A stretch of DNA of 64,000 nt from an uncultured candidatus Porisulfidus sp. (lineage in GTDB: Bacteria > Pseudomonadota > Gammaproteobacteria > Poriferisulfidales > Oxydemutatoraceae). This document shows, one piece after another, positions 9,781 to 60,658 of this stretch (the first letter of the stretch is position 1; each line of letters starts with the position of its first letter). Below the pieces are notes generated by a model. It worked only from the letters and a program-made list of their open reading frames with translations. It ran no database searches and had not been told where the DNA came from. The translations under genes were made by a program, and so were the position numbers. The DNA lies in the NCBI GenBank assembly GCA_965215125.1, contig OZ244052.1, positions 576,001 through 640,000 on the forward strand. Reading direction: 5' to 3'.

Positions 9781-10044
9781 ATGAAGAAACGATATACAGA
9801 AGAGCAAATTATCGGTGCGGTCAAATCACATGAGGCAGGTCGCACGATAGAGGATATTTGCCGAGAACTCGGTATAGCGCATGGCACCTTTTACAACTGG
9901 CGTAGCAAATATGCCGGGTTAGAAGTCAATGACGCCAAGCGATTAAAGAACCTTGTATCGGAGAATAACCGACTCAAGAAACTACTCGGCGAGCAATTAC
10001 TAGAAATCACCGCCCTCAAGGATGTGCTATCAAAAAAGTGGTGA
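9781..10044 (+). CDS. IS3 transposase OrfA
   Basis: MKKRYTEEQII...TFYNWRSKYAG...LSKKW; A6G slippery motif (AAAAAAG) at the orfA/orfB overlap. Confidence 0.93.
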   Translation: MKKRYTEEQIIGAVKSHEAGRTIEDICRELGIAHGTFYNWRSKYAGLEVNDAKRLKNLVSENNRLKKLLGEQLLEITALKDVLSKKW

Positions 10045-10856
10045 CCCCGGCAAGCAAAAGAAGCGTTGTTGCAGAGCTGAATACCCATTGGAGTTTGAGT
10101 GAGAGGCGCAGTTGCGCGCTGGTCGGGATCAGCCGTAGTAGTTATCACTATCAAGCACAGCCGCGTTGTGATGCAGAGATTAGAAGTCGCTTGTGCGAGT
10201 TGGCAAGCAAGTATCCACGCTATGGCTATTTGCTACTCTACCGTTTGCTACGAGAGGCAGGCTTTGTAGTGAATAAAAAACGGGTTCACCGCATCTACAA
10301 AGAAGCGAGACTGCAAGTACCCAAAAGACTGCGCAAGAAGCTCATCCGCACGAGGCAACGGCAGGCATTGCCTGAACAGGTGAATTGTCGCTGGTCAATG
10401 GACTTTGTGCATGATCGGTTAAGCGACGGCAGGTCGTTTAGGATATTCAATGTGATGGACGATTACAGTCGCGAACTGATCGGTCAATTCGCTGGTTTTT
10501 CGATTAGCAGTGGGCAAGTGGTGAGATGTTTAGAGCAACTCATCGCCGAGCGAGGTTGTCCGCAAAGCATCGTCTGCGACAACGGGCCGGAGTTCACTAG
10601 TAAAAAGATGCAGGTCTGGTCGCAAGATAGCGGCGTGGAACTACACTTTATTCAACCGGGTAAGCCGACCCAGAATGCTTTGGTGGAAAGCCTGAACGGT
10701 AAGTTTAGAGACAATTGCCTTAACCAGCACTGGTTCCGCAGCCTTCAGGAAGCGCGTCATATTATTGAACAGTGGCGATACCACTATAACCATGAACGCC
10801 CGCATAGCTCATTAGATTATATGACCCCGGTAGCATTCGCCACACGTGTTGCGTAG
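10038..10856 (+). CDS. IS3 transposase OrfB (DDE)
   Basis: WSMDFVHD...CDNGPEF...PGKPTQNALVESLNG...YNHERPHSSL. Confidence 0.95.
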   Translation: MVTPASKRSVVAELNTHWSLSERRSCALVGISRSSYHYQAQPRCDAEIRSRLCELASKYPRYGYLLLYRLLREAGFVVNKKRVHRIYKEARLQVPKRLRKKLIRTRQRQALPEQVNCRWSMDFVHDRLSDGRSFRIFNVMDDYSRELIGQFAGFSISSGQVVRCLEQLIAERGCPQSIVCDNGPEFTSKKMQVWSQDSGVELHFIQPGKPTQNALVESLNGKFRDNCLNQHWFRSLQEARHIIEQWRYHYNHERPHSSLDYMTPVAFATRVA

Positions 10857-12918: not shown

Positions 12919-13182
12919 ATGAATAAACGATATACAGAAGAGCAAATTATCGGTGCGATCAAATCGCACGAGGCAGGTCGCAGCACAGAGGACATTTGCC
13001 GAGAACTCGGTATAGCGCATGGCACCTTTTACAACTGGCGTAGCAAATATGCCGGGTTAGAAGTCAATGATGCCAAGCGATTAAAGAACCTTGTATCGGA
13101 GAATAACCGACTCAAGAAACTACTCGGCGAGCAACTATTAGAAATCACCGCCCTCAAGGATGTGCTATCAAAAAAGTGGTGA
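12919..13182 (+). CDS. IS3 transposase OrfA
   Basis: Near-identical to 9781..10044. Confidence 0.93.
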   Translation: MNKRYTEEQIIGAIKSHEAGRSTEDICRELGIAHGTFYNWRSKYAGLEVNDAKRLKNLVSENNRLKKLLGEQLLEITALKDVLSKKW

Positions 13183-13994
13183 CCCCGGCAAGCAAAAGAA
13201 GCGTTGTTGCAGAGCTGAATACCCATTGGAGTTTGAGTGAGAGGCGCAGTTGCGAGCTGGTCGGGATAAGCCGTAGTAGTTATCACTATCGAACACAGCC
13301 GCGTTGTGATGCAGAGATTAGAAGTCGCTTGTGCGAGTTGGCAAGCAAGTATCCACGCTATGGCTATTTGCTACTCTACCGTTTGCTACGAGAGGCAGGC
13401 TTTGTAGTGAATAAAAAACGGGTTCACCGCATCTACAAAGAAGCGAGACTGCAAGTACCCAAAAGACTGCGCAAGAAGCTCATCCGCACGAGGCAACGGC
13501 AGGCATTGCCTGAACAGGTGAATTGTCGCTGGTCAATGGACTTTGTGCATGATCGGTTAAGCGACGGCAGGTCGTTTAGGATATTCAATGTGATGGACGA
13601 TTACAGTCGCGAACTGATCGGTCAATTCGCTGGTTTTTCGATTAGCAGTGGGCAAGTGGTGAGATGTTTAGAGCAACTCATCGCCGAGCGAGGTTGTCCG
13701 CAAAGCATCGTCTGCGACAACGGGCCGGAGTTCACTAGTAAAAAGATGCAGGTCTGGTCGCAAGATAGCGGCGTGGAACTATACTTTATTCAACCGGGTA
13801 AACCGACCCAGAATGCTTTGGTGGAAAGCCTGAACGGTAAGTTTAGAGACAATTGCCTTAACCAGCACTGGTTCCGCAGCCTTCAGGAAGTGCGTCATAT
13901 TATTGAACAGTGGCGATACCACTATAACCATGAACGCCCGCATAGCTCATTAGATTATATGACCCCGGTAGCATTCGCCACACGTGTTGCGTAG
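13176..13994 (+). CDS. IS3 transposase OrfB
   Basis: Near-identical to 10038..10856. Confidence 0.95.
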   Translation: MVTPASKRSVVAELNTHWSLSERRSCELVGISRSSYHYRTQPRCDAEIRSRLCELASKYPRYGYLLLYRLLREAGFVVNKKRVHRIYKEARLQVPKRLRKKLIRTRQRQALPEQVNCRWSMDFVHDRLSDGRSFRIFNVMDDYSRELIGQFAGFSISSGQVVRCLEQLIAERGCPQSIVCDNGPEFTSKKMQVWSQDSGVELYFIQPGKPTQNALVESLNGKFRDNCLNQHWFRSLQEVRHIIEQWRYHYNHERPHSSLDYMTPVAFATRVA

Positions 13995-47290: not shown

Positions 47291-47677
47291 TTATTTATCG
47301 TATTTGATATAAGCAAAGCGAGCATCCGATGGGGTACCGGTTAAGGAACTCTCTTCTTCACCGGGCTGCCATTGTATAACTTCTTCTATTTTCTTAGCTA
47401 GCTCAAAGTCTTTATTCGTCACACCTTTGGCGGCGTGGTTCATCAGCTTAACAATAACAAAAGCATAAGAAACGGTTAAGTCGGGATGATGAAAAGCTGC
47501 CTCCGATAAATGCCCGACGGTATTGACTACCATCAGGGTGCTCTTCCAGCTATGGGTACGATATTTACGGCGAATCCAACCGTTTTCATAATACCAGTGC
47601 GGCAGTTCCTCTTTGAGGCGTGCTTCTATGTCCGCCTCACTATATGCCTCTTCGTCTTCGTGTTGTCTCCAACTCAT
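47291..47677 (-). CDS. Pterin-4-alpha-carbinolamine dehydratase
   Basis: EAAFHHPDLTVSY...LMNHAAKGVTNKDFELAKKIE. Confidence 0.9.
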   Translation of the reverse strand: MSWRQHEDEEAYSEADIEARLKEELPHWYYENGWIRRKYRTHSWKSTLMVVNTVGHLSEAAFHHPDLTVSYAFVIVKLMNHAAKGVTNKDFELAKKIEEVIQWQPGEEESSLTGTPSDARFAYIKYDK

Positions 47678-47909
47678 AATAATCTCCGTTAATTTGGTTA
47701 AACATAAACCATTGTAATACAATATCCGAACTATCGGGGGTGTCACGAATATAAATTTTTCGCATTAAAATTTCCACCCGATGCCACATAGTTTATACCG
47801 ACAATGGTTATGGTTTGTAGTACAATGACTTAAATCTTAATGAACACCACAGATTGAAAATGACTCTCTTTCAATGCAAAACTACATTTAATATGCTCTA
47901 CAAAGTGCA

Positions 47910-49607
47910 ATGACGGAAACGATAATCAAACTAAAGCAGAGCAAACGTCTCAAACGCAAGCGAGGCCAACCTAAAGGCAGACAGGTCTCGGATGTCGCTC
48001 TGTCGGAAATCAGAGATTTGTTGGGATATCGTTCCAGACGTCGCGATCTTCTGCTCGAACACTTGCATTTAATACAAGACCGCTACGGTCATATCGCTTT
48101 CGATCATTGTGTCGCACTCGCACACGAAATGAAAATATCTACATCGGAAGTCTACGAAGTTGCCACCTTTTATCATCATTTTGATTTGGTGAGCGACGAA
48201 CAAACACCGCCGCCGCCATTAACCGTTAGAGTATGCGATTCTATTAGCTGTCAAATGGACGGTTGCGAGGCATTGATAGAGGCATTAGAGAAAAACTTGA
48301 ATGCCGACGAAGTCAGAATACAACGCGTGCCTTGCGTCGGTCGTTGTGAGCAAGCACCGGTCGCGGTAGTCGGTACAAATCCCATTGCAACGGCAACACC
48401 GAAGACTATATCGGCGGCGATACAACAAAAATCAACCAAGGCACCCACCATCACAACGCATATAAGTTATGCGGCATACAAGCAAAAAGGCGGTTATCAA
48501 CTACTCAAGGCTCTGCACGACGGCACACGCAACACCGAGTCGGTGATACAAGCCTTAGACGACTCGGGATTACGCGGTTTAGGCGGTGCCGGCTTCCCGA
48601 GCGGGCGCAAATGGCGTATCGTCAAAGAACAACCGGCACCGCGTTATCTAGCGATCAATATAGACGAAGGTGAACCCGGCACATTCAAGGACCGATACTA
48701 CTTAGAAATAGACCCCCACCGTTTTTTCGAAGGGATGCTGATTGCATCATTCGTCGTAGAACTAGAAGCGATTTATATTTATTTGCGAGACGAGTACGCC
48801 GGGGTGCGCGAGATGTTGACCGAAGAACTGGAATTATTGCAAAAAGAATCCGAATTACCGTTGCCGTCCATAGAACTTCGACGCGCCGCAGGGGCTTATA
48901 TCTGCGGCGAGGAATCGGCAATGATAGAGTCCATAGAAGGCAAGCGCGGGATGCCTCGTTTGCGCCCTCCGTTCATCGCCCAAGTCGGTTTGTTCGGTAG
49001 ACCGACCTTGGAACATAATATGGAAACCTTGTATTGGGTGCGAGAAATCGTAGAAAAAGGCGGCGAATGGTTTGCTTCAAGTGGACGAAACGGGCGCAAA
49101 GGTTTACGCTCGTTCTCGGTGAGCGGGCGCGTCAACAAACCGGGTGTACATCTCGCACCGGCCGGCATCACCGTAAAAGAATTGATTGACGAATTCTGCG
49201 GCGGCATGCAAGAAGGACATGCATTCTACGGTTATTTTCCGGGCGGTGCTTCGGGCGGTATTTTGCCGGCATCGATGGGAGATATCCCGTTGGATTTCGA
49301 CACCTTGAACGAATACGGTTGTTTTATCGGATCGGCAGCGATAGTCGTGCTTTCGGATCAGGATGGGGCGCGTACGAGCGCACTCAATGCGATGCGTTTT
49401 TTCTCGCACGAATCGTGCGGTAAATGCACACCGTGTCGGGTCGGAACCTCTAAGGCGGTGATGCTGATGGAGAAAGAAAAATGGGATGTACCTTTGATGA
49501 ACGAACTGAGCAAGGTGATGGCGGATGCATCTATCTGCGGATTAGGTCAAGCCGCACCCAATCCTTTACAATGTATTATTAAGTACTTCCCATCGGAAAT
49601 AGAGTAA
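47910..49607 (+). CDS. NAD-dependent formate dehydrogenase beta subunit (NuoE/NuoF-like fusion)
   Basis: VCDSISC...PCVGRC [2Fe-2S]; GLRGLGGAGFP; YICGEESA; ESCGKCTPCR. Confidence 0.92.
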   Translation: MTETIIKLKQSKRLKRKRGQPKGRQVSDVALSEIRDLLGYRSRRRDLLLEHLHLIQDRYGHIAFDHCVALAHEMKISTSEVYEVATFYHHFDLVSDEQTPPPPLTVRVCDSISCQMDGCEALIEALEKNLNADEVRIQRVPCVGRCEQAPVAVVGTNPIATATPKTISAAIQQKSTKAPTITTHISYAAYKQKGGYQLLKALHDGTRNTESVIQALDDSGLRGLGGAGFPSGRKWRIVKEQPAPRYLAINIDEGEPGTFKDRYYLEIDPHRFFEGMLIASFVVELEAIYIYLRDEYAGVREMLTEELELLQKESELPLPSIELRRAAGAYICGEESAMIESIEGKRGMPRLRPPFIAQVGLFGRPTLEHNMETLYWVREIVEKGGEWFASSGRNGRKGLRSFSVSGRVNKPGVHLAPAGITVKELIDEFCGGMQEGHAFYGYFPGGASGGILPASMGDIPLDFDTLNEYGCFIGSAAIVVLSDQDGARTSALNAMRFFSHESCGKCTPCRVGTSKAVMLMEKEKWDVPLMNELSKVMADASICGLGQAAPNPLQCIIKYFPSEIE

Positions 49608-49621
49608 CTACGGAGAATATT

Positions 49622-52390
49622 ATGGCGGCAAATCCCGAATATTTTGCAAACACGCAAACGGTCGAGTTCGTACTAAACGGACAAACCATAAGTGCTTTTG
49701 AAGGTGAGACGATTTTACAAGCGGCGAAGCGACACGGAATAGACATCCCACATCTGTGTTTTAAGGAGGGCTTGCGTGCCGACGGCAACTGCCGTGCGTG
49801 CATGGTGGAAATAGAAGGCGAGCGGGTGTTGCAACCCTCATGCGTGAGACAACCGACTGCCGATATGAAAGTCACTACCGATAATCCTCGCTCCCTACAC
49901 GCACAACGTATGGTGCTGGAGCTTCTGCAATCCGACATGGTGCAGCAAAGCTATACATTAAATAGCGAATTAGACCGATGGAGCCGTCACTTAGACCTCG
50001 GCTTGCCGCGTTTTGAAAGCCGAGTTAATCCGCCTGCCGATAATTCTCATCCGGCGATTGCAGTCAATCTCGATGCCTGCATACAATGCACCCGTTGCTT
50101 GCGCGCGTGTCGCGAAGAGCAGAACAACGATGTGATCGGTTATGCTCGGCGCGGTGCCGGTTCGGAGATTGTCTTTGACTTGGACGACCCGATGGGGATG
50201 AGTAGCTGCGTGGGCTGTGGAGAATGTGTACAGGCTTGTCCCACCGGTGCGCTCATGCCGTCGCACGAAGTCGGTATGCAAGAACTAGATCGTAAAGTTG
50301 ATTCGGTTTGCCCTTATTGCGGTGTCGGTTGCTTGCTGAGTTTTAATGTTAAGGACGATAAGATTATTTATGTCGAAGGGCGAGACGGGCCTTCCAATCA
50401 TAGCCGCTTATGCGTCAAGGGACGTTACGGCTTTGATTATATACACAATGAAGATCGGCTCACAAAACCTTTGATCCGAGTTGAGGGCACCCCTAAAATC
50501 GCCGAGATAGAATCACTGAGCGACGATGATATCTCACAAATGTTTCGCGAGGCGAGCTGGGACGAGGCTCTGGATTATGCTGCCGAAGGCTTGAAAAAAA
50601 TATACGCCGAAGGTGGTCCTTCGTCGGTTGCCGGCTTCGGGTCGGCTAAAGGCACGAACGAAGAAGCATATTTATTTCAGAAATTGATACGCACCGGTTT
50701 TGCAACCAATAATGTAGACCACTGCACGCGCTTATGCCATGCTTCTTCGGTTGCCGCACTCCTGGAGGGCATAGGTTCCGGCGCAGTCTCCAACCAAGTG
50801 TGCGATGTTAAAGAATCCGAGGTTATCGTCGTTATCGGCGCAAACCCGACCGAAAATCATCCGGTCGCTGCGACCTTTATTAAAAACGCGGCGCGTTCCG
50901 GTAAGTCTTTAATCGTTATGGATCCGCGGGCGGTAGAGCTTTCCAAACATGCCGATTATTATTTGCAGTTCAAACCCGACACCGATGTCGCATTGCTCAA
51001 CGCAATGATGCACTCTATTATCAAACAAGGTTTGGTCGATGAAAAATTCATCGCCGAACGAACCGAAGGCTATAGCGAACTGGAGGCACATCTAAAAGAT
51101 TATTCCCCCGAGGCGATGGCACCTATTTGCGGCATAGATGCAAAAACCATAGACGAAGTCGCAGCTTTGTATGCGGGATCCAAAGCCTCTATCATCTTCT
51201 GGGGCATGGGCATCTCACAGCATATACACGGAACCGACAACGCGCGGTGCCTAATCGCGCTATCGCTGATGACCGGTCAAATCGGTAGACCGGGTACCGG
51301 ATTACACCCGTTGCGCGGACAAAATAATGTGCAGGGTGCTTCGGACGCAGGTTTGATACCGATGGTCTTCCCGGATTATCAACGCGTAGACAACGATGCG
51401 GCAGCGGATCGTTTCGAAAAATTATGGGGTTGCGAACTGGACAAAAAACCCGGCTTGACCGTGGTGGAAATCATGCACGAAGCCGAACGAAAAAAAATTC
51501 GCGGCATGTATATCATGGGGGAAAATCCGGCAATGTCCGACCCGAACCTCAACCATGCCCGCAAGGCACTCGCAACACTCGACCATTTAATCGTGCAGGA
51601 TATTTTTATGACCGAGACCGCGCTGTTTGCCGATGTTATTTTGCCGGCATCGGCTTTCCCCGAAAAAACCGGTACCGTGACCAACACCGACCGTCGCGTG
51701 CAGCTCGGCAGGCAAGCCTTAGACCCCCCCGGCGATGCGCGACTGGATTTATGGATTATACAAGATATCGCACAACGCATAGGTTTGGATTGGCACTACG
51801 AAAAAGTCTCCGATGTGTTTGACGAGATGCGCGAATGTATGGATAGCATCAAAGGTATTAGTTGGGAACGGTTGGAGCAGACAGGTTCGGTCACCTATCC
51901 GTGTAGCGATGCCGAAGACCCAGGACAACCGATTTTATTTAAGGAAAACTTTCCTACCGCAAACGGACTCGGTCGCTTCGTACCGGCGGAGTTCACCCAC
52001 GCAGACGAAATGCCGGATCAACAATATCCTTTTATATTCATCACCGGACGGCAATTGGAGCATTGGCATACCGGAGCGATGACGCGGCGAGCGTCGGTAT
52101 TAGCGGCGATAGAACCCCACCCGGTTGCATCGGTACACCCCGACGATTTGGCCGCCATCGACGCGCAAGCCGGCGACACCATTAGGCTGACTTCCAAACG
52201 CGGCACCGTAGAATGTTTGGCACGTACCGACAGAGGCTTGATACGCGGACAAGTCTTTATGCCGTTTTGCTATAGAGAAGCTGCCGCCAATTTGTTAACC
52301 AACGCAGCTTTGGATCCCTACGGGAAAATACCCGAGTTCAAGTTTTGTGCATTGAAGCTGGAAAAAATAGAGTCATCACCCGCATCGTAA
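49622..52390 (+). CDS. Formate dehydrogenase alpha subunit (Mo/W-bisPGD, Cys ligand)
   Basis: N-terminal Fe-S domains; CPYCGVGC; DHCTRLCHASSV; LRGQNNVQGASD. Confidence 0.95.
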   Translation: MAANPEYFANTQTVEFVLNGQTISAFEGETILQAAKRHGIDIPHLCFKEGLRADGNCRACMVEIEGERVLQPSCVRQPTADMKVTTDNPRSLHAQRMVLELLQSDMVQQSYTLNSELDRWSRHLDLGLPRFESRVNPPADNSHPAIAVNLDACIQCTRCLRACREEQNNDVIGYARRGAGSEIVFDLDDPMGMSSCVGCGECVQACPTGALMPSHEVGMQELDRKVDSVCPYCGVGCLLSFNVKDDKIIYVEGRDGPSNHSRLCVKGRYGFDYIHNEDRLTKPLIRVEGTPKIAEIESLSDDDISQMFREASWDEALDYAAEGLKKIYAEGGPSSVAGFGSAKGTNEEAYLFQKLIRTGFATNNVDHCTRLCHASSVAALLEGIGSGAVSNQVCDVKESEVIVVIGANPTENHPVAATFIKNAARSGKSLIVMDPRAVELSKHADYYLQFKPDTDVALLNAMMHSIIKQGLVDEKFIAERTEGYSELEAHLKDYSPEAMAPICGIDAKTIDEVAALYAGSKASIIFWGMGISQHIHGTDNARCLIALSLMTGQIGRPGTGLHPLRGQNNVQGASDAGLIPMVFPDYQRVDNDAAADRFEKLWGCELDKKPGLTVVEIMHEAERKKIRGMYIMGENPAMSDPNLNHARKALATLDHLIVQDIFMTETALFADVILPASAFPEKTGTVTNTDRRVQLGRQALDPPGDARLDLWIIQDIAQRIGLDWHYEKVSDVFDEMRECMDSIKGISWERLEQTGSVTYPCSDAEDPGQPILFKENFPTANGLGRFVPAEFTHADEMPDQQYPFIFITGRQLEHWHTGAMTRRASVLAAIEPHPVASVHPDDLAAIDAQAGDTIRLTSKRGTVECLARTDRGLIRGQVFMPFCYREAAANLLTNAALDPYGKIPEFKFCALKLEKIESSPAS

Positions 52391-52453: not shown

Positions 52454-53266
52454 TTGACGAACGATGCGCCATACCGAAACCCTCTATCACTACGACCGAT
52501 GTGCCGACTTGCCGCATATCTAGGCAAAGCCATTCCTTTGCGCAAACTCTTATTAGATCCCGAACATAGCCTTTATGTGCAGTCTTGGCAACCCAAAGAA
52601 TTGCAATACGCCAAGCTCAACGCCGACGGCTTCGGCTTCGGCTGGCATTATCCCGACGGACGTGCAGCCGTCTATAGAAATGCGCTACCTATATGGTCGG
52701 ATGTCAATTTGAACGACTTAGCCGACAGCCTGTACAGCGAACGGTGGTTTGCGATGGTGCGTAGTGCGACTGCAGGTTTTGCTACCGGCGTTGATAATAC
52801 ACAACCTTTTAGACACGACCGCTATCTTTATCTACACAACGGTTATATAAAAAATTTCAATCAGACCATGCGCCGAAAGATCAGCAACGAATTATCCGAT
52901 GAAATCATCGCTACGCTACGCGGATTGAACGACTCGGAATATCTATTCGCATTGTTGCGTCAATTCATTGCCGACCACCCACAGGAAAAGCTCATTCGGA
53001 TTATCAAAAACTTAATTCAATGGTTGACGACACATATAGCAGGCAACGAAGCTTTGCTCAACATGGTTATCAGCGATAGTCAATCTCTGTATGCGCTACG
53101 CTATGCTATTAATCACCAAGCACCCTCTTTGTATTTTCTAAGTGAGACCGATGCACTTTGGATTGCTTCCGAGAAACTGGATAACAGGTCGGCATGGGAA
53201 ACATTTCCCGAAAAGAAATTGATGGTGGTAGACCCCGAGTACGCGATTAGATGGACTGAGTTATGA
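52454..53266 (+). CDS. egtC: Ntn-amidohydrolase, EgtC-like (mature start probably MCRLAAY)
   Basis: MCRLAAYLG...SLYVQSWQPKEL...LNADGFGFGW...VRSAT...NTQPF...HNG. Confidence 0.82.
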   Translation: MTNDAPYRNPLSLRPMCRLAAYLGKAIPLRKLLLDPEHSLYVQSWQPKELQYAKLNADGFGFGWHYPDGRAAVYRNALPIWSDVNLNDLADSLYSERWFAMVRSATAGFATGVDNTQPFRHDRYLYLHNGYIKNFNQTMRRKISNELSDEIIATLRGLNDSEYLFALLRQFIADHPQEKLIRIIKNLIQWLTTHIAGNEALLNMVISDSQSLYALRYAINHQAPSLYFLSETDALWIASEKLDNRSAWETFPEKKLMVVDPEYAIRWTEL

Positions 53267-54435
53267 GATACGAAGAACTCGTAGCAAAACTTTCGCAACT
53301 ACACGATAAGGTGCAATACCTAACCGCATCTATGGATGACAATGCGTATCGTCAACAATATCATCCCGACTTGAGCCCTCTAGGCTGGCACTACGGACAT
53401 ATAATCTATATAGAGAACTTATGGTTGCGCGATACCGTACTAAACGAGGGCATGCTGAAAGAAAGCGACCACCAACTCTACAACCCACGGAATACCCCCA
53501 AGCATTTGCGAGGCAAAGCCCTGACGCATAACAATACGCTTTTAGAACGAGGGCAACGACAATTCAACAATAATATCGTGTTGCTCGAAAATTTGCCGAC
53601 CCGGGTCGGCAAACATCGCTTGATGAAAGATGCATACTTGCTAAAGTTTATTCTGCAACACCATACGCTACACCTAGAGACGATGAAAATGATTATCACC
53701 CAAAAGCATATTCAAGAGACGACACCGAGCAACAACGGTTGCACTCTCAACGGCGGTAGTCTCAAACACGCCACGCAAGTTAATAAAGAACCTTTGTTAT
53801 TTGAGCGCAAGCGATACCGAATCGGAGGCAAAGACAACTGGTCTTTTGATAACGAATTACCTCATCACTCGGTAAATTTGGATACTTTCGCAATCAATCG
53901 CTCTCCGGTTAGCAACGCCGAATATTTAGGGTTTATCGAAGCCGGCGGCTATCAAGACAAGCGGCACTGGAGTACGGAAGGCTTTTCGTGGCTACAAAAA
54001 TCAAAAGTAAAAGCACCCGACGGTTGGTGCTATCAAAACGGGTGGTTTCAAGCAGACCCCGAGGGTTATCGAAGTCTTGATGCCGATGCTGCAGTCTGTG
54101 GTATTTGTTACTACGAAGCACAGGCTTTTGCGAACTATGCAAACACAAGGCTTCCGCACGAATACGAGCGGGAAGTCTCACACCCACAACTAGAAAAAAA
54201 TACCGATACATGGGAATGGTGTTTGAATAATTTTCACCCGTACTCGGGGTTTAACTCTTTCCCGTATCGCGAATACTCTACACCTTGGTTTGATAAACAC
54301 CATCATGTACTACGCGGCGGCTGCCGCTTCAACGAAGTCAATTTTCATTTGCGGGCGAGCTTTAGGAACTTTTACGAAAAACACAAGCGGCATATTTTCT
54401 CGGGGATTAGGCTCGCTTACGATATCCACCCGTAG
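53263..54435 (+). CDS. EgtB-like non-heme iron sulfoxide synthase (DinB + FGE-sulfatase domains)
   Basis: SPLGWHYGH, HHTLH (HxxxH), FDNELPHH, WEWC, YREYSTPWF, RASFRNFY. Confidence 0.8.
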   Translation: MRYEELVAKLSQLHDKVQYLTASMDDNAYRQQYHPDLSPLGWHYGHIIYIENLWLRDTVLNEGMLKESDHQLYNPRNTPKHLRGKALTHNNTLLERGQRQFNNNIVLLENLPTRVGKHRLMKDAYLLKFILQHHTLHLETMKMIITQKHIQETTPSNNGCTLNGGSLKHATQVNKEPLLFERKRYRIGGKDNWSFDNELPHHSVNLDTFAINRSPVSNAEYLGFIEAGGYQDKRHWSTEGFSWLQKSKVKAPDGWCYQNGWFQADPEGYRSLDADAAVCGICYYEAQAFANYANTRLPHEYEREVSHPQLEKNTDTWEWCLNNFHPYSGFNSFPYREYSTPWFDKHHHVLRGGCRFNEVNFHLRASFRNFYEKHKRHIFSGIRLAYDIHP

Positions 54436-54572
54436 ACGTCGATTACTACACTTCATAATGTATGGTCGCCCAGCGCATCAAAGTTCTAAACAACATTGTA
54501 TTGATGAGCCTTCGGCTCAATGGAAAATTCAATAACATTCGCCTACTTTAGGTATTGTTGTACAATAGCGCA

Positions 54573-56249
54573 ATGGCTAAAAACATTAGACCGCACTCTT
54601 CCATAATCGTTGACGGCGACGCGCGTGCCCCCAGTCGCTCGATGTTGCGCGCCGTAGGTTTCAAAGACAAAGATTTTAATAAGCCACAAGTCGGGATTGC
54701 TTCGACATGGGCCGAGGTAACGCCCTGCAATATGCACATTGACCGTCTGGCTCGGCGGGCGGCGAGCGCGGTTGACGATGCCGGCGGCAAAGCTCTGATA
54801 TTCAATACGATTACCGTTTCCGACGGCATTTCCATGGGCACCGAGGGGATGAAATATTCTCTGGTGTCGCGTGAAGTGATTGCCGACTCTATAGAGACGG
54901 TTGTAGGATGCGAAGGTTTTGACGGTCTCATCGCTATCGGCGGCTGCGACAAAAATATGCCGGGTTGCATGATGGCAATCGCTCGTCTAAATCGTCCGGC
55001 GATATTCATATACGGTGGCACAATTCTGCCGGGCATTTTAGGTGAACAGAAGCTAGATATCATCAGTGTATTTGAAAGCGTGGGAAGTAAAGCAAAAGGC
55101 AAAATGAGTGCCAAGCAATTCAAGCAAATTGAATCTTGCGCAATTCCCGGTCCGGGTTCTTGCGGCGGCATGTACACCGCCAACACGATGGCTTCGGCAA
55201 TAGAGGCTCTCGGCATGAGCCGACCCGGCAGTTCGGCACAAAACGCGGTATCACGTGCCAAATCCGAAGATTGTACCGGTGCCGGAAAGTTGTTAATCAA
55301 TTTAATCAAAAAGCAGATACTGCCACGCGATATTATGACCAAAAAAGCTTTTGAAAACGCCATCACAGTCGTCACTGCGTTGGGTGGTTCGACTAATGCA
55401 GTACTACATCTAATTGCGATGGCGCATAGTGCCGGTGTCAAACTAAAACTCGAAGATTTTTCGAGAATAGGACGCAAGGTGCCGGTGCTTGCCGATCTTA
55501 GGCCCAGCGGTCGCTATCGCATGTCCGAATTGATTCGCATCGGTGGTATACGCCCGTTGATGAAACGGCTGCTTGAAAAAGGACTGCTGCACGGCGACTG
55601 TCTGAGCGTCACCGGTAAAACCTTGGAACAAGACCTAAAAGGTACTTCCGACTATCCTAAAAAGCAACAAATTATCCGCGATTGGGACAATCCGATAAAA
55701 GCCGACAGCCACCTCGTGATTCTGCGAGGCAACCTAGCACCTCGTGGTGCGGTCGCCAAAATCACCGGCAAAGAAGGCACGCAATTTGCCGGTACTGCTC
55801 GGGTATTCAATTCCGAAGAGGAGGCATTGCAAAATATTTTGTCGGGAAAAATTAACAAAGGAAATGTTATCGTAATTCGCTACGAAGGTCCGCGCGGAGG
55901 GCCCGGCATGCGAGAAATGCTATCGCCGACTTCCGCGATTATGGGGCAAGGATTAGGGTCCCATGTTGCGTTGATTACCGACGGGCGATTTTCCGGAGGC
56001 AGTCACGGCTTTGTCGTCGGACATATTACCCCCGAAGCGGCGACCGGCGGTCCTTTGGCTATCGTCAAAAACGGCGACTCTATTACCATCGACGCAGTAG
56101 CAAAGACTATAAACCTCAACTTGTCCGAAGCACGGATCAAACAGCGACTAAAACAATGGAAAGCCCCCAAAACCGAACAACGGCGAGGCACACTTGCCAA
56201 ATATGCACGGCTCGTAGCTTCTGCTTCCGAGGGTGCGGTGACCGAATAG
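54573..56249 (+). CDS. ilvD: Dihydroxy-acid dehydratase
   Basis: [56 protein letters not shown]. Confidence 0.97.
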
Positions 56250-56250
56250 A

Positions 56251-56410
56251 ACCACCACTTGCTCCAGTTGGGCAAGTGGTATCACGTTGTGCAGAAACTC
56301 TGCGTAGATATGTAGGTCGGATAGACTATAAAACCACCACTTGCTCCAGTTGGGCAAGTGGTATCAAGCTGTGCAGAAACTTTGTATGGGTATATAGGTC
56401 GGATAAACTA
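56251..56410 (+). repeat. Two tandem 82 bp units, each with a strong hairpin
   Basis: ACCACCACTTGCTCCAGTTGGGCAAGTGGTATCA at 56251 and 56333; stem ACCACTTGC/GCAAGTGGT. Confidence 0.9.
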
Positions 56411-56491
56411 TGGTTTATCCTTATGAGTGCAAAACGGTGTAGGTTGGCTCCTACGAGTGGTTTGCAGAAATTAATGATTAGATGAATTACG

Positions 56492-56923
56492 ATGCTTGAG
56501 TTTTGGACATCCGGTCCTATTTGGAAAAAGAGCGCATATAACACCTGGTGGTGTTTGGTCGGCTGCGCAACCGGTGATTTAGGCACGATTGCATATTTCC
56601 AGATTGCCGGTATTCGGTGGCCTACACTGTCTATTATGTTGCTCGCAATGGTCAATGGTTTGATTAGTAGCATTTTATTAGAGACTTTTATTTTGATTAA
56701 ACGACAACACTTCCCGTTTGTAACCGCATTGCGGACGGCACTGGGGATGAGTTTTATTGCCATGTTGGCAATGGAGATAGCGATGAATACCACCGATTTT
56801 ATTATCACCGGAGATGCAAGGCTGACGCTTGCGGCAATATTGCCTATATTGGTGGCAGGCTTTGTCACACCATGGCCGTATAACTATTGGCGGTTGAAAA
56901 AATTAGGGCTTAGTTGTCATTGA
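56492..56923 (+). CDS. DUF4396-family membrane protein
   Basis: NTWWCLVGCATGD...MSFIAMLAMEIAMN...GFVTPWPYNYWRLKK..CH. Confidence 0.8.
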   Translation: MLEFWTSGPIWKKSAYNTWWCLVGCATGDLGTIAYFQIAGIRWPTLSIMLLAMVNGLISSILLETFILIKRQHFPFVTALRTALGMSFIAMLAMEIAMNTTDFIITGDARLTLAAILPILVAGFVTPWPYNYWRLKKLGLSCH

Positions 56924-57014
56924 CTAATCGTTTATAATAGCCTACTTAAACAAAACCCGATATTCGTGAACTAACGAAAATGATTAATCCCACTTCAATT
57001 TTAAGGAGTTTAAT

Positions 57015-57647
57015 ATGCCATTAACACAAGAAGAGCTAAAGGCTCTGATGGAACAAAAAAACATCATGCGGCGCAAAGCATACGACGCAAGAGCAGCGCA
57101 AGAAAACAAAGATGAAATTAGCGAAAGCATCTGCGAAAAATTCATTGCTTTGCCGGAATACCAAAATGCGAAAACCGTAATGTGGTATATAGATTGCCGT
57201 TCCGAGACGCGCACTAAAAAACATCTGCAACTAGAAATCGATAAACAAGACAAGAAAATTATCGTCCCCTACTGCACGGTGGACGAGAAAGGCGACAATA
57301 AGTTGGGACTTTGGCATTTGAGCAATTTCGACGAGTTGATCGTCGGTAAATGGAACATCTTGGAACCACCACGCGAATTATGGGGTAACCCCGACAAAGA
57401 GGTAGAACCCGAAGAACTTGATATCGTTATGGTGCCCGGTGTCGGTTTTGACCGCAACGGCGGGCGCATGGGCAACGGTCAAGGATACTATGACCGCCTG
57501 TTGGAAAGGGCACGCAAAGATTGTCCGCTGATAGCTATCTGTTACGAATCACAGTTATTCGAAGAAATACTGGTAGGACCGCACGATATATTCATGGATA
57601 AAGTCATTACCGAAAAAGACATCTACGAGGGCCGAGGAAGGGACTAA
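57015..57647 (+). CDS. 5-formyltetrahydrofolate cyclo-ligase
   Basis: ILEP, DIVMVPGVGFDRNGGRMGNGQGYYDRLL, PHDIFMD. Confidence 0.93.
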   Translation: MPLTQEELKALMEQKNIMRRKAYDARAAQENKDEISESICEKFIALPEYQNAKTVMWYIDCRSETRTKKHLQLEIDKQDKKIIVPYCTVDEKGDNKLGLWHLSNFDELIVGKWNILEPPRELWGNPDKEVEPEELDIVMVPGVGFDRNGGRMGNGQGYYDRLLERARKDCPLIAICYESQLFEEILVGPHDIFMDKVITEKDIYEGRGRD

Positions 57648-58570
57648 TGACCGCCAAAATAGACGATACTTATGCAGAAGCCTTTAAGAGTCTCTATGTA
57701 GAGTTTTTAATCACTGCCCGAGATCGCAAATGGTTAGACCATGCGATTAACGCCTGCACCGGTAATGCGTCTAGTTCTATACTCTGCGATTGCGAAGCCG
57801 GCATGGATCGTTATGTAGGCCCGGGCGGCGACGAGCGTGCGCAAACCCCGGACGGACGTCCGGGCGCGATCATCCAACTACATGTACCGCGCTTTTGGAA
57901 GGATCGTGTCGCACGGCTTGAACGAGCGGCGTTGGTGCGTATCAGTCAGAATGTCTTGACTTGCCCGACCGCCTCTTGCTTCAATACGCTGGAGGATAGC
58001 GAGAACTATTATCAGATAGGACGCAAAGTTGCTTATTTCGGCAACGGTTATCAAAAACGTATAGAACGTTTCGGGCGGAAGATGTGGTGGATACCGATAC
58101 TCGGCGGAGAATTTATATTAGATCGCCGTCTCGGCTATAGCGAAGGTTTGATGGGCGGAAATTTATGGTTCTTCGGCAAAGATACGGATTCGGCACTTGA
58201 CGCCGCCGAAAAAGGTGTTGCGGCGATTGCCCCGATGCCCGAGGTCGTCACGACTTTTCCCGGCGGCATTGCCGGAAGTGGATCTAAGGCAGGTAGCCGC
58301 TACGATTTTACGATTGCCAGTACTTACGAAAAATTCTGTCCGATGCTTCAACAAAACCCTGATGTGGAACGCGGGCTACCCGAGGGTGTTGCCTCGGTGA
58401 TGGAGATTATTATGAACGGTCGGAATATAGAAGCCATCATCAATGCCACCCAAGCGGCGATATCGGCATCCAAAGATACCGAGGGTCTAATCATGATTTC
58501 GGCAGGTAACTATGGCGGCAAGCTAGGCAAGAGCCTAATCTACCTACACCCCGACAAGCAACCGACTTAA
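57647..58570 (+). CDS. Formylmethanofuran:tetrahydromethanopterin formyltransferase (Ftr/FhcD family)
   Basis: IDDTYAEAF, CDCEAG, TPDGRPG, QNVLTCPT, FPGGIAGSGSKAGS, ISAGNYGGKLG. Confidence 0.92.
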   Translation: MTAKIDDTYAEAFKSLYVEFLITARDRKWLDHAINACTGNASSSILCDCEAGMDRYVGPGGDERAQTPDGRPGAIIQLHVPRFWKDRVARLERAALVRISQNVLTCPTASCFNTLEDSENYYQIGRKVAYFGNGYQKRIERFGRKMWWIPILGGEFILDRRLGYSEGLMGGNLWFFGKDTDSALDAAEKGVAAIAPMPEVVTTFPGGIAGSGSKAGSRYDFTIASTYEKFCPMLQQNPDVERGLPEGVASVMEIIMNGRNIEAIINATQAAISASKDTEGLIMISAGNYGGKLGKSLIYLHPDKQPT

Positions 58571-58593
58571 GCAAGTTCACCGAGACTACCATT

Positions 58594-59481
58594 ATGCAAC
58601 AGGCGATTATTATGGACGGACAAAGTCTGTCACAAAAGATCGCCCAGGATTGTGCGGAACAATTAGCCGAATTAAACTATCCCGAGATTGTTTTAGCCAC
58701 CGTACTAATCGGTGATTATGCACCGAGTCGCCTTTATGTGAACTTGAAGATGCGGCTCGCTAAAAAAGCGGGGTTGATACCGCGTTTGGTTGAATTATCC
58801 GCCGATGTAAGCAACGACCAAGTCGAAGATACATTACTGAATCTTGCCAACGATAATCAGGTACACGGTATCCTCTTGCAATTGCCTCTGCCCGAACACT
58901 TAGACACCGACCGCCTGTTAGAGATGATTCCACCGGAAAAGGATGTAGACGGCTTGACCATACAAAGTATGGGACGTCTAATCAAAGACGAGGTCGGCAT
59001 GGTGCCTTGTACGCCGTTGGGTGTCATGCGGTTCATAAAAGAATACAACATTACAACCGAAGGGCGCACCGCCGTTGTAATAGGACGATCGTATCTAGTC
59101 GGCATACCGCAAATGCTACTATTATCCAAGCACGGTATCGATGCGAGCGTAACGCTGTGCCATTCTAAAACCGAGGCTATAGAGGATATTTGCCTTAATG
59201 CCGATATTATCGTCGCTGCTGCCGGCATCAACGGACTAATCGGCAAATCCGCCGTCAAACCGGGGGCTGCGGTTTTTGATGTAGGTATCACTTCGGTAGA
59301 CGGAAAAATCATAGGCGATGTCATTTTTGACGAAGTCAAAGAAGTTGCCGGAGCGATTACACCTATGCCGGGTGGCACCGGCCCGATGACGGTTGCCAGC
59401 CTCATTGAAAATACAATCAAAGCGGCACGAATGCAGGGCGTGATAGAGGACAACTCGCTAGACCAAGTAAACGAACCCTAA
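58594..59481 (+). CDS. folD: Methylene-THF dehydrogenase/methenyl-THF cyclohydrolase
   Basis: SRLYVNLK, HGILLQLPLP, EKDVDG, PCTPLG, VIGRS..VG, ITPMPGGTGPMTVA. Confidence 0.93.
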   Translation: MQQAIIMDGQSLSQKIAQDCAEQLAELNYPEIVLATVLIGDYAPSRLYVNLKMRLAKKAGLIPRLVELSADVSNDQVEDTLLNLANDNQVHGILLQLPLPEHLDTDRLLEMIPPEKDVDGLTIQSMGRLIKDEVGMVPCTPLGVMRFIKEYNITTEGRTAVVIGRSYLVGIPQMLLLSKHGIDASVTLCHSKTEAIEDICLNADIIVAAAGINGLIGKSAVKPGAAVFDVGITSVDGKIIGDVIFDEVKEVAGAITPMPGGTGPMTVASLIENTIKAARMQGVIEDNSLDQVNEP

Positions 59482-59502
59482 TTAGGTGTACTAACCTTAA
59501 AT

Positions 59503-60658
59503 ATGGCAATGGCTAATCGGCAGATAGAAAATATCAACCCTCAAATTCTGCGTCAATGCCGAGAACAAATCGGATTGAGTATAGAACAAGCTGAAAAAAA
59601 AGCTGGATTGCGTACACTTGCCGGCATTGAAGCAGGTGAAAAATATCCCACCATTAAGCAAATTGAAAAGCTCGCTAAGCGATACCATGTACCAGCGTGG
59701 GTTTTTTTGAGGAGAAAACTACCTGCTAAATACCGCCTTGAAAATTTTGCATCTTATAGAAAATTCCGGAATAGTCCTATTAGCGGTTATGAAGTAAGGT
59801 CTGTAATAGCAAACGTGGAACGGTTCAGAGAATTGTTATTAGAATTCAGAGACGACATGGAAGAACCCGTACAACCTTTCTCGCCACCGCAAATAATGGA
59901 AAGTGACTTCAAAGCTACCGCAGAGATTACTCGCAAGTGGTTAGGATGTACGGATATGTCGTACCCACTTATTGAATGGAAGCGTATGCTTGAAGATAAT
60001 AATGTCTTCATTTTTACAACCAGCAAATACTCGAGCTGGTCAAAAGTTGAGCCTGATAAATTTCGAGGGCTGTCCGTATATTATGACACCTTACCGATTA
60101 TCGTCATCAATAACTCCGATACATATAAAGCACAATCATTTACATTGTTTCACGAGTTGGGACACTTACTTAAAAAACAAAGTGTTCTAGATGAGCAAAA
60201 AAAAAATAGAATTACAGGAAGACGAAGAAAAATGGTGCGATATGTTTGCCGGGGCGGTTTTGATGCCCGAGGAAGATTTTTTACGCGAAGTGGAAACATT
60301 CTCTCACGAGGAACCATTAGAAAAACAAATGAGACAAATCGAAAAACTGGCAAAAAAATTCCAGGTCAGTTCTTATGCTTTTTTAGTGAGAATGAAACAT
60401 CTAGATGTTATCACTCAACCACAATACAATGAACTTGAAAATCAGTTGAGAAAAAATTATCTTGCTTACAAAAACAAGCTACAAGGGGGAAGGATATCAA
60501 GAAATATAGTAAAAGAGGCTCTGGAGCAGTACGGCACTATTTACTCTAAGACGGTTGTGCAGATGTATCGAAATCAAGAAATCGATTTGCATAAATTTTG
60601 TAAATTGGTCGGGATCAAGAAAGTGTCGGATGCGTTGGAATTAGAAACCCTACTATGA
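59503..60658 (+). pseudogene. XRE-HTH + ImmA/IrrE metallopeptidase, frameshifted in an A10 tract
   Basis: HTH and FTLFHELGH in ORF 59503..60432; EEKWCDMFAGAVLMP in the +1 frame; A10 run at 60197-60206. Confidence 0.85.

Follow-up and report, generated by a model that had tools for sequence, protein, structure and literature searches.

We analyzed a 64,000-nucleotide stretch of DNA from an uncultured candidatus Porisulfidus species (the window, C1:576001–640000 of the genome) and focus on a module of three plus-strand genes that may connect two pterin carriers of one-carbon units, tetrahydromethanopterin (H4MPT) and tetrahydrofolate (THF). The first gene codes for a 5-formyltetrahydrofolate cyclo-ligase (MTHFS) of 210 amino acids (positions 57015–57647; PF01812, TIGR02727). 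It is followed by a 307-residue, MTHFS-linked paralog of the formyltransferase Ftr/FhcD, here termed Ftr-m (57647–58570; PF01913, PF02741, TIGR03119), and by FolD, a bifunctional methylene-THF dehydrogenase/methenyl-THF cyclohydrolase of 295 residues (58594–59481; PF00763, PF02882). MTHFS and Ftr-m are joined by a TAATG (57645–57649; ...GGGACTAATGACC... at the junction), and the MTHFS stop codon TAA therefore shares one base with the Ftr-m ATG, an overlap consistent with translational coupling. As read from the sequence, an AAGGAG hexamer resembling a Shine-Dalgarno element (57003–57008) is positioned 6 nt 5′ of the MTHFS ATG, and a 23-bp spacer separates the Ftr-m stop (58570) from the folD ATG (58594). 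An earlier, sequence-only reading of this DNA had given the same gene order, TAATG coupling, and 23-bp gap, all of which are exact. It had also reported no other one-carbon carrier genes in the window, and indeed we find no Ftr besides Ftr-m and no mch or fae match there; the genome's others are located at C1:1.906 Mb, 104 kb, and 102 kb, respectively, and fhcBADC and the mtd-like genes map outside the window as well. A scan of positions 56200–60000 returned seven promoter-like and four terminator-like sites, which is not above the numbers in shuffled sequences (6.6 and 3.7).

The window MTHFS matches PF01812 over profile positions 2–186 of 186 (133.5 bits) and TIGR02727 over positions 1–182 of 182 (134.3 bits, cut-off 84.9). 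Solved MTHFS structures match its residues 15–205, and its glycine-rich block 'GRMGNGQGYYDRLL' aligns with 'FRVGFGGGYYDRYL' in 1ydm and 'YRLGFGKGYYDRLL' in 1sou, following the pattern G-x-G-x-GYYDR. This block has a catalytic role in MTHFS, and residues G153–R161 are invariant across 39 linked copies. FolD is recognized by PF00763 (98.2 bits) and PF02882 (186.3 bits) and scores 205–279 bits with the 25 listed NCBIfam FolD models, all under their own lineage-specific cut-offs. In Ftr-m both lobes of the family are present at full length, PF01913 at residues 3–151 (141.5 bits) and PF02741 at residues 154–301 (158.8 bits), and the protein narrowly passes the FhcD equivalogs TIGR03119 (296.7 versus 292.6 bits) and NF002554 (315.7 versus 297 bits). 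Residues 4–301 align to 1m5h, 1ftr, and 1m5s; among solved structures, stand-alone archaeal Ftr enzymes score higher (227.6 bits for 1m5h, 220.1 for 1ftr, and 213.8) than FhcD from Methylorubrum extorquens (6s6y_D, 158.0 bits).

The host genome, which is complete (a single contig of 2.22 Mb), contains two Ftr genes. The second encodes the canonical FhcD, located in an fhcB-fhcA-fhcD-fhcC cluster at C1:1.906–1.910 Mb, 1.27 Mb distant from Ftr-m, and has the better Pfam score (194.8 versus 143.6 bits). Ftr-m and this FhcD share 41% sequence identity and fall into different clades, by which a recent duplication of the local fhcD is ruled out. A family scan with one representative per 50% cluster returned 977 proteins at E ≤ 0.001. 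The best full-length representative outside Ftr-m's own cluster is 65% identical to it, and the members of its cluster carry Planctomycetota labels; full-length representatives placed outside the Ftr-m clade by our tree share at most 45% identity with the window protein. The trees reported here for Ftr and MTHFS are midpoint-rooted and come from quick searches. In the Ftr tree of 75 rows, 28 rows form an Ftr-m clade (support of 100 in the Shimodaira-Hasegawa-like approximate likelihood ratio test, SH-aLRT) with a stem of 0.7 + 0.2 changes per column and short inner branches. The remaining 47 rows include the host's canonical FhcD, five more canonical copies, and representatives labelled Lokiarchaeota and Thorarchaeota. 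The clade spans Gammaproteobacteria and Planctomycetota, with planctomycete rows basal and Gammaproteobacteria nested under the midpoint root.

An even sample of 401 Gammaproteobacteria contains 54 genomes with any Ftr, 10 of them with the Ftr-m type (73–100% identity); all other matches are at or below 44%. We considered 52 genomes with Ftr-m altogether (41 of the host's order, six more of the class, four Planctomycetota, and one of Arenicellales), and canonical Ftr accompanies Ftr-m in 51, the exception being a genome that is 93% complete (G037). Ftr-m is thus an extra copy beside canonical FhcD and not a replacement. It has the two-lobe architecture, model score, and conserved glutamate of the Ftr/FhcD family and lies outside the canonical branch of the tree and away from fhcABC genes. 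Three bins labelled 'uncultured Mycobacterium sp.' and 'Thiothrix sp.' (L061, L084, and L093) also bear an MTHFS-Ftr-FolD operon, with Ftr identities of 78–84%; their taxon labels look unreliable.

Alignment of 82 Ftr-m rows with 44 canonical rows revealed 37 positions conserved in both groups, among them a glutamate, E253, which is invariant in 43 Ftr-m rows and kept in at least 80% of the 44 canonical rows. E253 aligns with the glutamate of the YEIVING block of solved enzymes ('vyEivinG' in 1ftr). The conserved catalytic glutamate of Methanopyrus kandleri Ftr is Glu245. Its counterpart in M. extorquens FhcD is Glu252 (PMC6926001), and from alignment position we infer that E253 corresponds to residue 245/252 of the characterized enzymes. 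Five further residues are fixed in Ftr-m, namely E19, N102, N133, L152, and Y227, at sites where the canonical rows have Arg (91%), Cys (68%), Asp (89%), Met (91%), and Asn (70%), respectively. None of the canonical rows has E19, N102, L152, or Y227, and N133 is seen in about 2% of them. Two short insertions, at residues 61–65 and 79–83, are likewise specific to Ftr-m.

We describe the neighborhood from GTDB genomes, in a set of 80 species-representative loci. MTHFS is found directly upstream of Ftr-m on the same strand in 76/80 loci, and also in 30/30 relatives' loci; one of the four exceptions sits at a contig end and three are from Planctomycetota. Gaps in the 76 adjacent pairs lie between −4 and +34 nt, with 67 of them at ≤6 nt. 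FolD follows Ftr-m (within 400 nt) in 62 of the 80 loci, 61 of which also have MTHFS upstream. Chance adjacency of housekeeping genes is ruled out by these 76 loci in two phyla. The gene for dihydroxy-acid dehydratase, ilvD, a synteny marker rather than a functional part of the module, precedes MTHFS in 48/80 loci. In the window it occupies positions 54555–56249 on the plus strand and is accompanied upstream of MTHFS by a DUF4396 gene, an ilvD-DUF4396 order shared by 5/80 loci.

Linked MTHFS proteins share 64–100% identity with the window MTHFS (median 71%, 77 loci) and Ftr-m proteins 73–98% with the window Ftr-m (median 82%); for FolD the values are 39–97% (median 52%). Ordinary MTHFS from 13 other gammaproteobacterial families is 23–33% identical to the window protein, and in the MTHFS tree a very long branch (3.51 + 1.38) parts the linked clade from the ordinary enzymes. 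Within the linked clade, MTHFS branches in the same way as Ftr-m across phyla. A single MTHFS gene was found per genome in the four Planctomycetota and in the Arenicellales member; it is unlinked in two of the planctomycetes, and even there its groupings (L140 with L116, L143 with L119) are those of Ftr-m. Such agreement in the absence of linkage indicates joint inheritance, and apparently joint transfer, of the two genes. Among genomes of the class sample, MTHFS of ≥66% identity is present in 9/10 with Ftr-m (the one lacking it is 62% complete) and in 0/390 others scored. A predicted complex of two Ftr-m chains and one MTHFS scored 0.01 against a mark of 0.32, which is not evidence either way.

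In 52/80 loci, the 3-kb flank has serine-cycle genes downstream of the module and in the same orientation. The commonest orders are (ilvD)-MTHFS-Ftr-FolD-sga-mcl (39 loci) and ilvD-MTHFS-Ftr-sga-mcl-mtkA (9 loci). In one genome of ∼1.1 Mb (locus L133) MTHFS-Ftr-FolD-Sga-Mcl-MtkA-MtkB-Hpr form a single run, and the Arenicellales locus reads sga-hpr-MTHFS-Ftr. The form without serine-cycle genes, as in the window, is in the minority: the host's sga-mcl-mtkA-mtkB-hpr genes are located at C1:1106386–1111686, 474 kb from the module. Among them, the malate-CoA ligase subunit beta passes its model (NF010647, 620.9 bits, cut-off 604). The sga-like aminotransferase has BhcA as its best match (578 versus 650 bits), and the malyl-CoA-lyase-like gene matches CitE and malyl-CoA-lyase models below their cut-offs; the exact activities of these two are therefore assigned from context. 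A homolog of Mcl is present in 40/41 genomes of the order and, by coordinates, lies ≤10 kb from Ftr-m in 23/41. The position of the module at the head of a serine-cycle operon in most relatives supplies a physiological need for methylene-THF. We also noted single in-frame stops in the malyl-CoA-lyase-like gene of six relatives (G005, G014, G017, G018, G025, and G037) and a split mtkA in another locus (L134:10735–11897). Errors of long-read assembly or decay of the genes could explain both.

Elsewhere in the host genome, fae and mch lie at 102–105 kb next to RimK-like, CitG-like, and ATP-grasp genes, and two Mpt_N (mtd-like) dehydrogenase genes are present. Together with fhcBADC, these genes make the H4MPT pathway complete. 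The window MTHFS and FolD are the only matches to their families in the genome, which also encodes serine hydroxymethyltransferase (SHMT). Profile searches of the genome found neither formate-THF ligase (FTHFS, the ftfL product; best 19.4 bits, cut-off 27) nor PurU (best 118 bits, cut-off 285.95), and RuBisCO was found in 0/21 genomes of the order, the host included. A pyrroloquinoline quinone (PQQ)-dependent alcohol dehydrogenase of the methanol/ethanol type is present in the host (775 versus 480 bits), and XoxF-type dehydrogenases occur in one family of the order. Beside the fae/mch island we noted a methanethiol oxidase equivalog, MtoX (G000:C1:107724–109073, L131:11724–13073, minus strand; 770.8 bits, cut-off 650). 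From one substrate it would supply formaldehyde to the H4MPT pathway and sulfide to a sulfur oxidizer; Candidatus Oxydemutatoraceae and Candidatus Porisulfidus are described as sponge-associated sulfur oxidizers in the available part of PMC11685487.

Low incidence of FTHFS extends beyond the host. The enzyme scores above cut-off in 3/41 genomes of the order and 0/4 Planctomycetota, and is present in the single Arenicellales genome. In the class sample, cross-tabulated by hand, FTHFS occurs in 82/400 genomes overall, in 35/44 with canonical Ftr only, and in 3/10 with Ftr-m. When four unpublished genomes are left out (G339, with Ftr-m and FTHFS; G084, G185, and G351, with canonical Ftr only and FTHFS), the figures are 2/9 for Ftr-m and 32/41 for canonical-only genomes.

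These findings suggest how the module could work. Formaldehyde, the source of which could be PQQ alcohol dehydrogenase or methanethiol oxidase, would be oxidized via Fae, Mtd, and Mch to N5-formyl-H4MPT. Canonical FhcBADC would then shift the formyl group to methylofuran, or load methylofuran from formate by the reversed hydrolase reaction. Ftr-m would pass the formyl group from formyl-methylofuran to N5 of THF rather than of H4MPT, and MTHFS would spend ATP to cyclize N5-formyl-THF, otherwise a dead end, to 5,10-methenyl-THF. FolD would reduce this to 5,10-methylene-THF, from which SHMT would feed the serine cycle (sga, mcl, mtkAB, hpr). N5-formyl-THF is known to re-enter the folate pool only via MTHFS. 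Obligate pairing with MTHFS is to be expected if the Ftr-m product is N5-formyl-THF; Ftr chemistry acylates the N5 of the pterin (PMC6926001). THF as acceptor, formyl-methylofuran as donor, and the direction of flux are what we infer from the comparative data.

The claim that Ftr-m, MTHFS, and FolD serve as a bridge by which the H4MPT/methylofuran pathway supplies the folate pool independently of formate-THF ligase appears to us evenly balanced between right and wrong. We advance more tentatively, and just short of such a balance, its specific form, in which Ftr-m would be a formyl-methylofuran:tetrahydrofolate N5-formyltransferase that makes up an ATP-driven, two-enzyme bridge with its co-evolving MTHFS, replaces formate-THF ligase in marine and sponge-associated serine-cycle Gammaproteobacteria, and is the missing link in Planctomycetota. 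The bridge best explains the data because Ftr-m is additional to FhcD, is paired with MTHFS, usually precedes FolD and the genes of the serine cycle, and occurs for the most part in genomes without FTHFS. The sequence-only reading had proposed that the Ftr paralog may formylate N5 of THF without formate-THF ligase, and had named phylogeny, neighborhood, and a genome-wide gene search as checks. Ftr-m does not group with canonical FhcD, linkage to the cyclo-ligase is conserved across two phyla, and the genome encodes fhcBADC, mch, fae, and mtd elsewhere, with ftfL and purU both below cut-off. All of these computational checks thus came out in favor of N5-formylation of THF, with support that is comparative in kind.

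Several points weigh against such a bridge. We know of no Ftr shown to use THF; characterized Ftr enzymes use H4MPT. SHMT makes 5-formyl-THF, and its salvage could explain an MTHFS in a THF/serine-cycle operon. As the sole copies in the genome, MTHFS and FolD must also be housekeeping genes, which weakens guilt by association. The methylofuran of M. extorquens is attached to FhcABCD as a prosthetic group, tightly but non-covalently (PMC6926001), and the available part of PMC8141765 likewise describes it as a bound prosthetic group of Fhc. A separate Ftr would therefore need to dock on Fhc or to draw on a free furan pool. Kinship among the genomes means that the genome counts lack independence, and the contrast in FTHFS is therefore a suggestion rather than a statistical result. 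Ftr-m and FTHFS occur together in six genomes (G007, G009, G011, G163, G339, and G045 of Arenicellales), by which a strict replacement of FTHFS by Ftr-m is ruled out. With our query we found no Mcl homolog in the four Planctomycetota, which do carry the pair, so that the serine-cycle link of the module is not universal.

MTHFS also has relatives that occur without Ftr-m. Seven sampled genomes that lack Ftr-m have MTHFS copies 39–57% identical to the window protein, and of three such loci examined, two have MTHFS next to ilvD and one has it next to two Mpt_N genes. In the former (L137:4850–7164 and L138:3339–5798; 57 and 51% identity, respectively) the ilvD-MTHFS synteny is as in the window, and the genomes have no Ftr. 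In the latter (L136:6604–9481; 54% identity), MTHFS and the Mpt_N genes are divergently oriented, in a gammaproteobacterial genome of 5.1 Mb that also encodes canonical Ftr and FTHFS. MTHFS may therefore have occupied the locus before Ftr-m did. The ilvD-MTHFS synteny in Ftr-less genomes suggests a gammaproteobacterial home of this MTHFS, in contrast to the basal position of the planctomycete rows in the Ftr tree.

The main rival to the formyl bridge, which we regard as rather unlikely, holds that Ftr-m is a stand-alone, H4MPT-specific isozyme beside FhcD that is co-regulated with assimilation. MTHFS would then recycle the SHMT by-product 5-formyl-THF, and methylene-THF would derive from serine or form when formaldehyde condenses spontaneously with THF. 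In favor of this explanation, Ftr-m passes the FhcD equivalog (296.7 versus 292.6 bits), keeps 37 family-conserved positions including the glutamate, and scores higher with stand-alone archaeal Ftr (1m5h and 1ftr) than with the complex-bound 6s6y_D. It does, however, have replacements specific to its clade at near-invariant Ftr positions, for which an isozyme gives no reason. Single-copy MTHFS and FolD, MTHFS relatives that adjoin ilvD or mtd-like genes where Ftr-m is missing, and the several genomes with both Ftr-m and FTHFS all fit a salvage role. Yet near-obligate adjacency (76/80) and the matching trees of unlinked genes are not accounted for, and an MTHFS better conserved than FolD (medians of 71 and 52%), with ordinary MTHFS at 23–33% identity, would be unusual for salvage. 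An isozyme would furthermore leave a serine-cycle organism without FTHFS, PurU, and RuBisCO with no enzymatic route from formate-level one-carbon units to THF.

A bridge running in the reverse, dissimilatory direction seems improbable to us. Here, Ftr-m would move the formyl group from formyl-THF to methylofuran and FhcA would free formate for an NAD-linked formate dehydrogenase (FDH), so that Ftr-m replaces PurU/FTHFS in disposing of folate-bound one-carbon units derived from demethylation, and MTHFS retrieves mis-formed 5-formyl-THF. MTHFS drives 5-formyl-THF to methenyl-THF with ATP, so that its obligate pairing with Ftr-m better suits the assimilatory direction. The module also heads an assimilatory serine-cycle operon in 52/80 loci. 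An FDH-like pair does lie 4.6–9.7 kb upstream in the window, but no FDH is listed in the 3-kb module flanks of relatives, FDH being outside the query set for the flanks. With PurU and FTHFS both absent, folate-bound one-carbon units have no known exit to formate, and Ftr reactions are reversible, Fhc being run in both directions (PMC6926001).

Finally, it is highly improbable that, as the sequence-only reading had already raised, the MTHFS clade switched pterin and converts N5-formyl-H4MPT to methenyl-H4MPT with ATP in a reductive H4MPT branch from formate while Ftr-m keeps H4MPT, because the very long branch of the linked clade (3.51 + 1.38) and the one MTHFS relative that adjoins two Mpt_N (methylene-H4MPT dehydrogenase-type) genes are outweighed by the presence of Mch, which interconverts the same H4MPT forms without ATP, by the status of the window MTHFS as the genome's only one and its score above the MTHFS equivalog cut-off, by FolD, a folate enzyme, following in 62/80 loci (61 with MTHFS upstream), and by a serine-cycle context left unexplained by methylene-H4MPT, which is not known to be a substrate of bacterial SHMT.

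The FDH-like pair is predicted to be NAD-linked and consists of a Nuo51-type subunit (47910–49607) and a molybdopterin subunit (49622–52390). A pterin-4a-carbinolamine dehydratase gene is found on the minus strand, opposite to the pair (47291–47746). The earlier reading had placed FDH and pterin dehydratase 5–10 kb from the module, close to the 4.6–9.7 kb upstream that we measured. Between this pair and ilvD, a class-II glutamine amidotransferase gene is followed by a gene with DinB_2 and FGE-sulfatase domains (52454–54435), a pairing that we take to be typical of ergothioneine/ovothiol-type sulfoxide synthase loci. Downstream of folD, a gene with HTH_3 and Peptidase_M78 (IrrE-like) domains (59503–60658) is split into overlapping open reading frames (59503–60432 and 60191–60658), each of which contains part of the M78 domain. 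The same two-piece match is also seen in two relatives (L040 and L042), and the split could reflect a pseudogene common to these genomes, a frameshift, or faulty assembly. Two plus-strand reading frames with GTG starts, both of 272 amino acids and 3.1 kb apart (10038–10856 and 13176–13994), may represent a repeated gene or an insertion sequence.

The transfer of one-carbon units out of the H4MPT pathway and into folate is central to methylotrophy, and to our knowledge the only established enzymatic link between the two consists of free formate and formate-THF ligase, as in M. extorquens. The host belongs to an order of marine and sponge-associated bacteria with a serine-cycle operon, no RuBisCO, and mostly no ligase, and the module sits where such a link is needed. 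If the bridge is real, the Ftr family would gain a new reaction, and MTHFS would have a primary, assimilatory role instead of one in repair. The H4MPT genes of planctomycetes, long a puzzle, would gain a testable function and a link to the 'partial' folate pathway of these bacteria. Reconstructions that score the present genomes, and Planctomycetota, as incomplete in the folate one-carbon pathway (available part of PMC9874027) would be corrected. Current annotation pipelines call Ftr-m an ordinary FhcD, which hides the paralogy. The bridge can be tested directly, as it involves two small soluble proteins and an ftfL mutant exists.

We found no account of an MTHFS-linked or THF-using Ftr in a literature search for which most subscription journals were out of reach. 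The available part of PMC9012536 describes archaeal Ftr2 paralogs of unknown function beside the characterized Ftr1 in anaerobic methanotrophic archaea (ANME), Archaeoglobales, Methanopyrus, and Methanothermobacter. Like Ftr-m, Ftr2 is a divergent second copy; that part of the report mentions no link to MTHFS or folate, and our tree held no labelled archaeal Ftr2. With characterized Ftr/FhcD (EC 2.3.1.101; 1ftr, 2fhj, 1m5h, and 6s6y chain D), Ftr-m shares the two-lobe architecture, a full-length alignment, the glutamate, and probably the chemistry of acyl transfer onto N5 of a reduced pterin. It differs by its separate clade, its site outside the fhc cluster, its MTHFS/folate operon, the five replacements, and the two insertions, and the acceptor proposed is THF instead of H4MPT. 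The window MTHFS shares family and motifs with the salvage enzyme (EC 6.3.3.2), whereas the linked copies are distinguished by their co-inheritance with a formyltransferase, their position at the head of the operon, and their mutual conservation, and would bear main-line and not repair flux.

Among known systems, the closest functional analogue of the module is the route via FtfL, Fch, and MtdA of M. extorquens, enzymes which perform the same proposed job of bringing formate-level one-carbon units to methylene-THF at the cost of one ATP. There, mtdA and fch reportedly sit in the serine-cycle cluster, as the module does in relatives of the host. In the FtfL route ATP is spent on formate, whereas in the module it would be spent by MTHFS on N5-formyl-THF, with FolD in place of MtdA and Fch and free formate dispensable. 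The closest logical analogue is the glutamate formiminotransferase and cyclodeaminase pair (FTCD) of histidine breakdown, in which a transferase loads a one-carbon unit on N5 of THF and a second enzyme cyclizes the product to 5,10-methenyl-THF. This pair differs from Ftr-m and MTHFS in that it belongs to other protein families, uses formiminoglutamate as donor, and drives cyclization by deamination without ATP.

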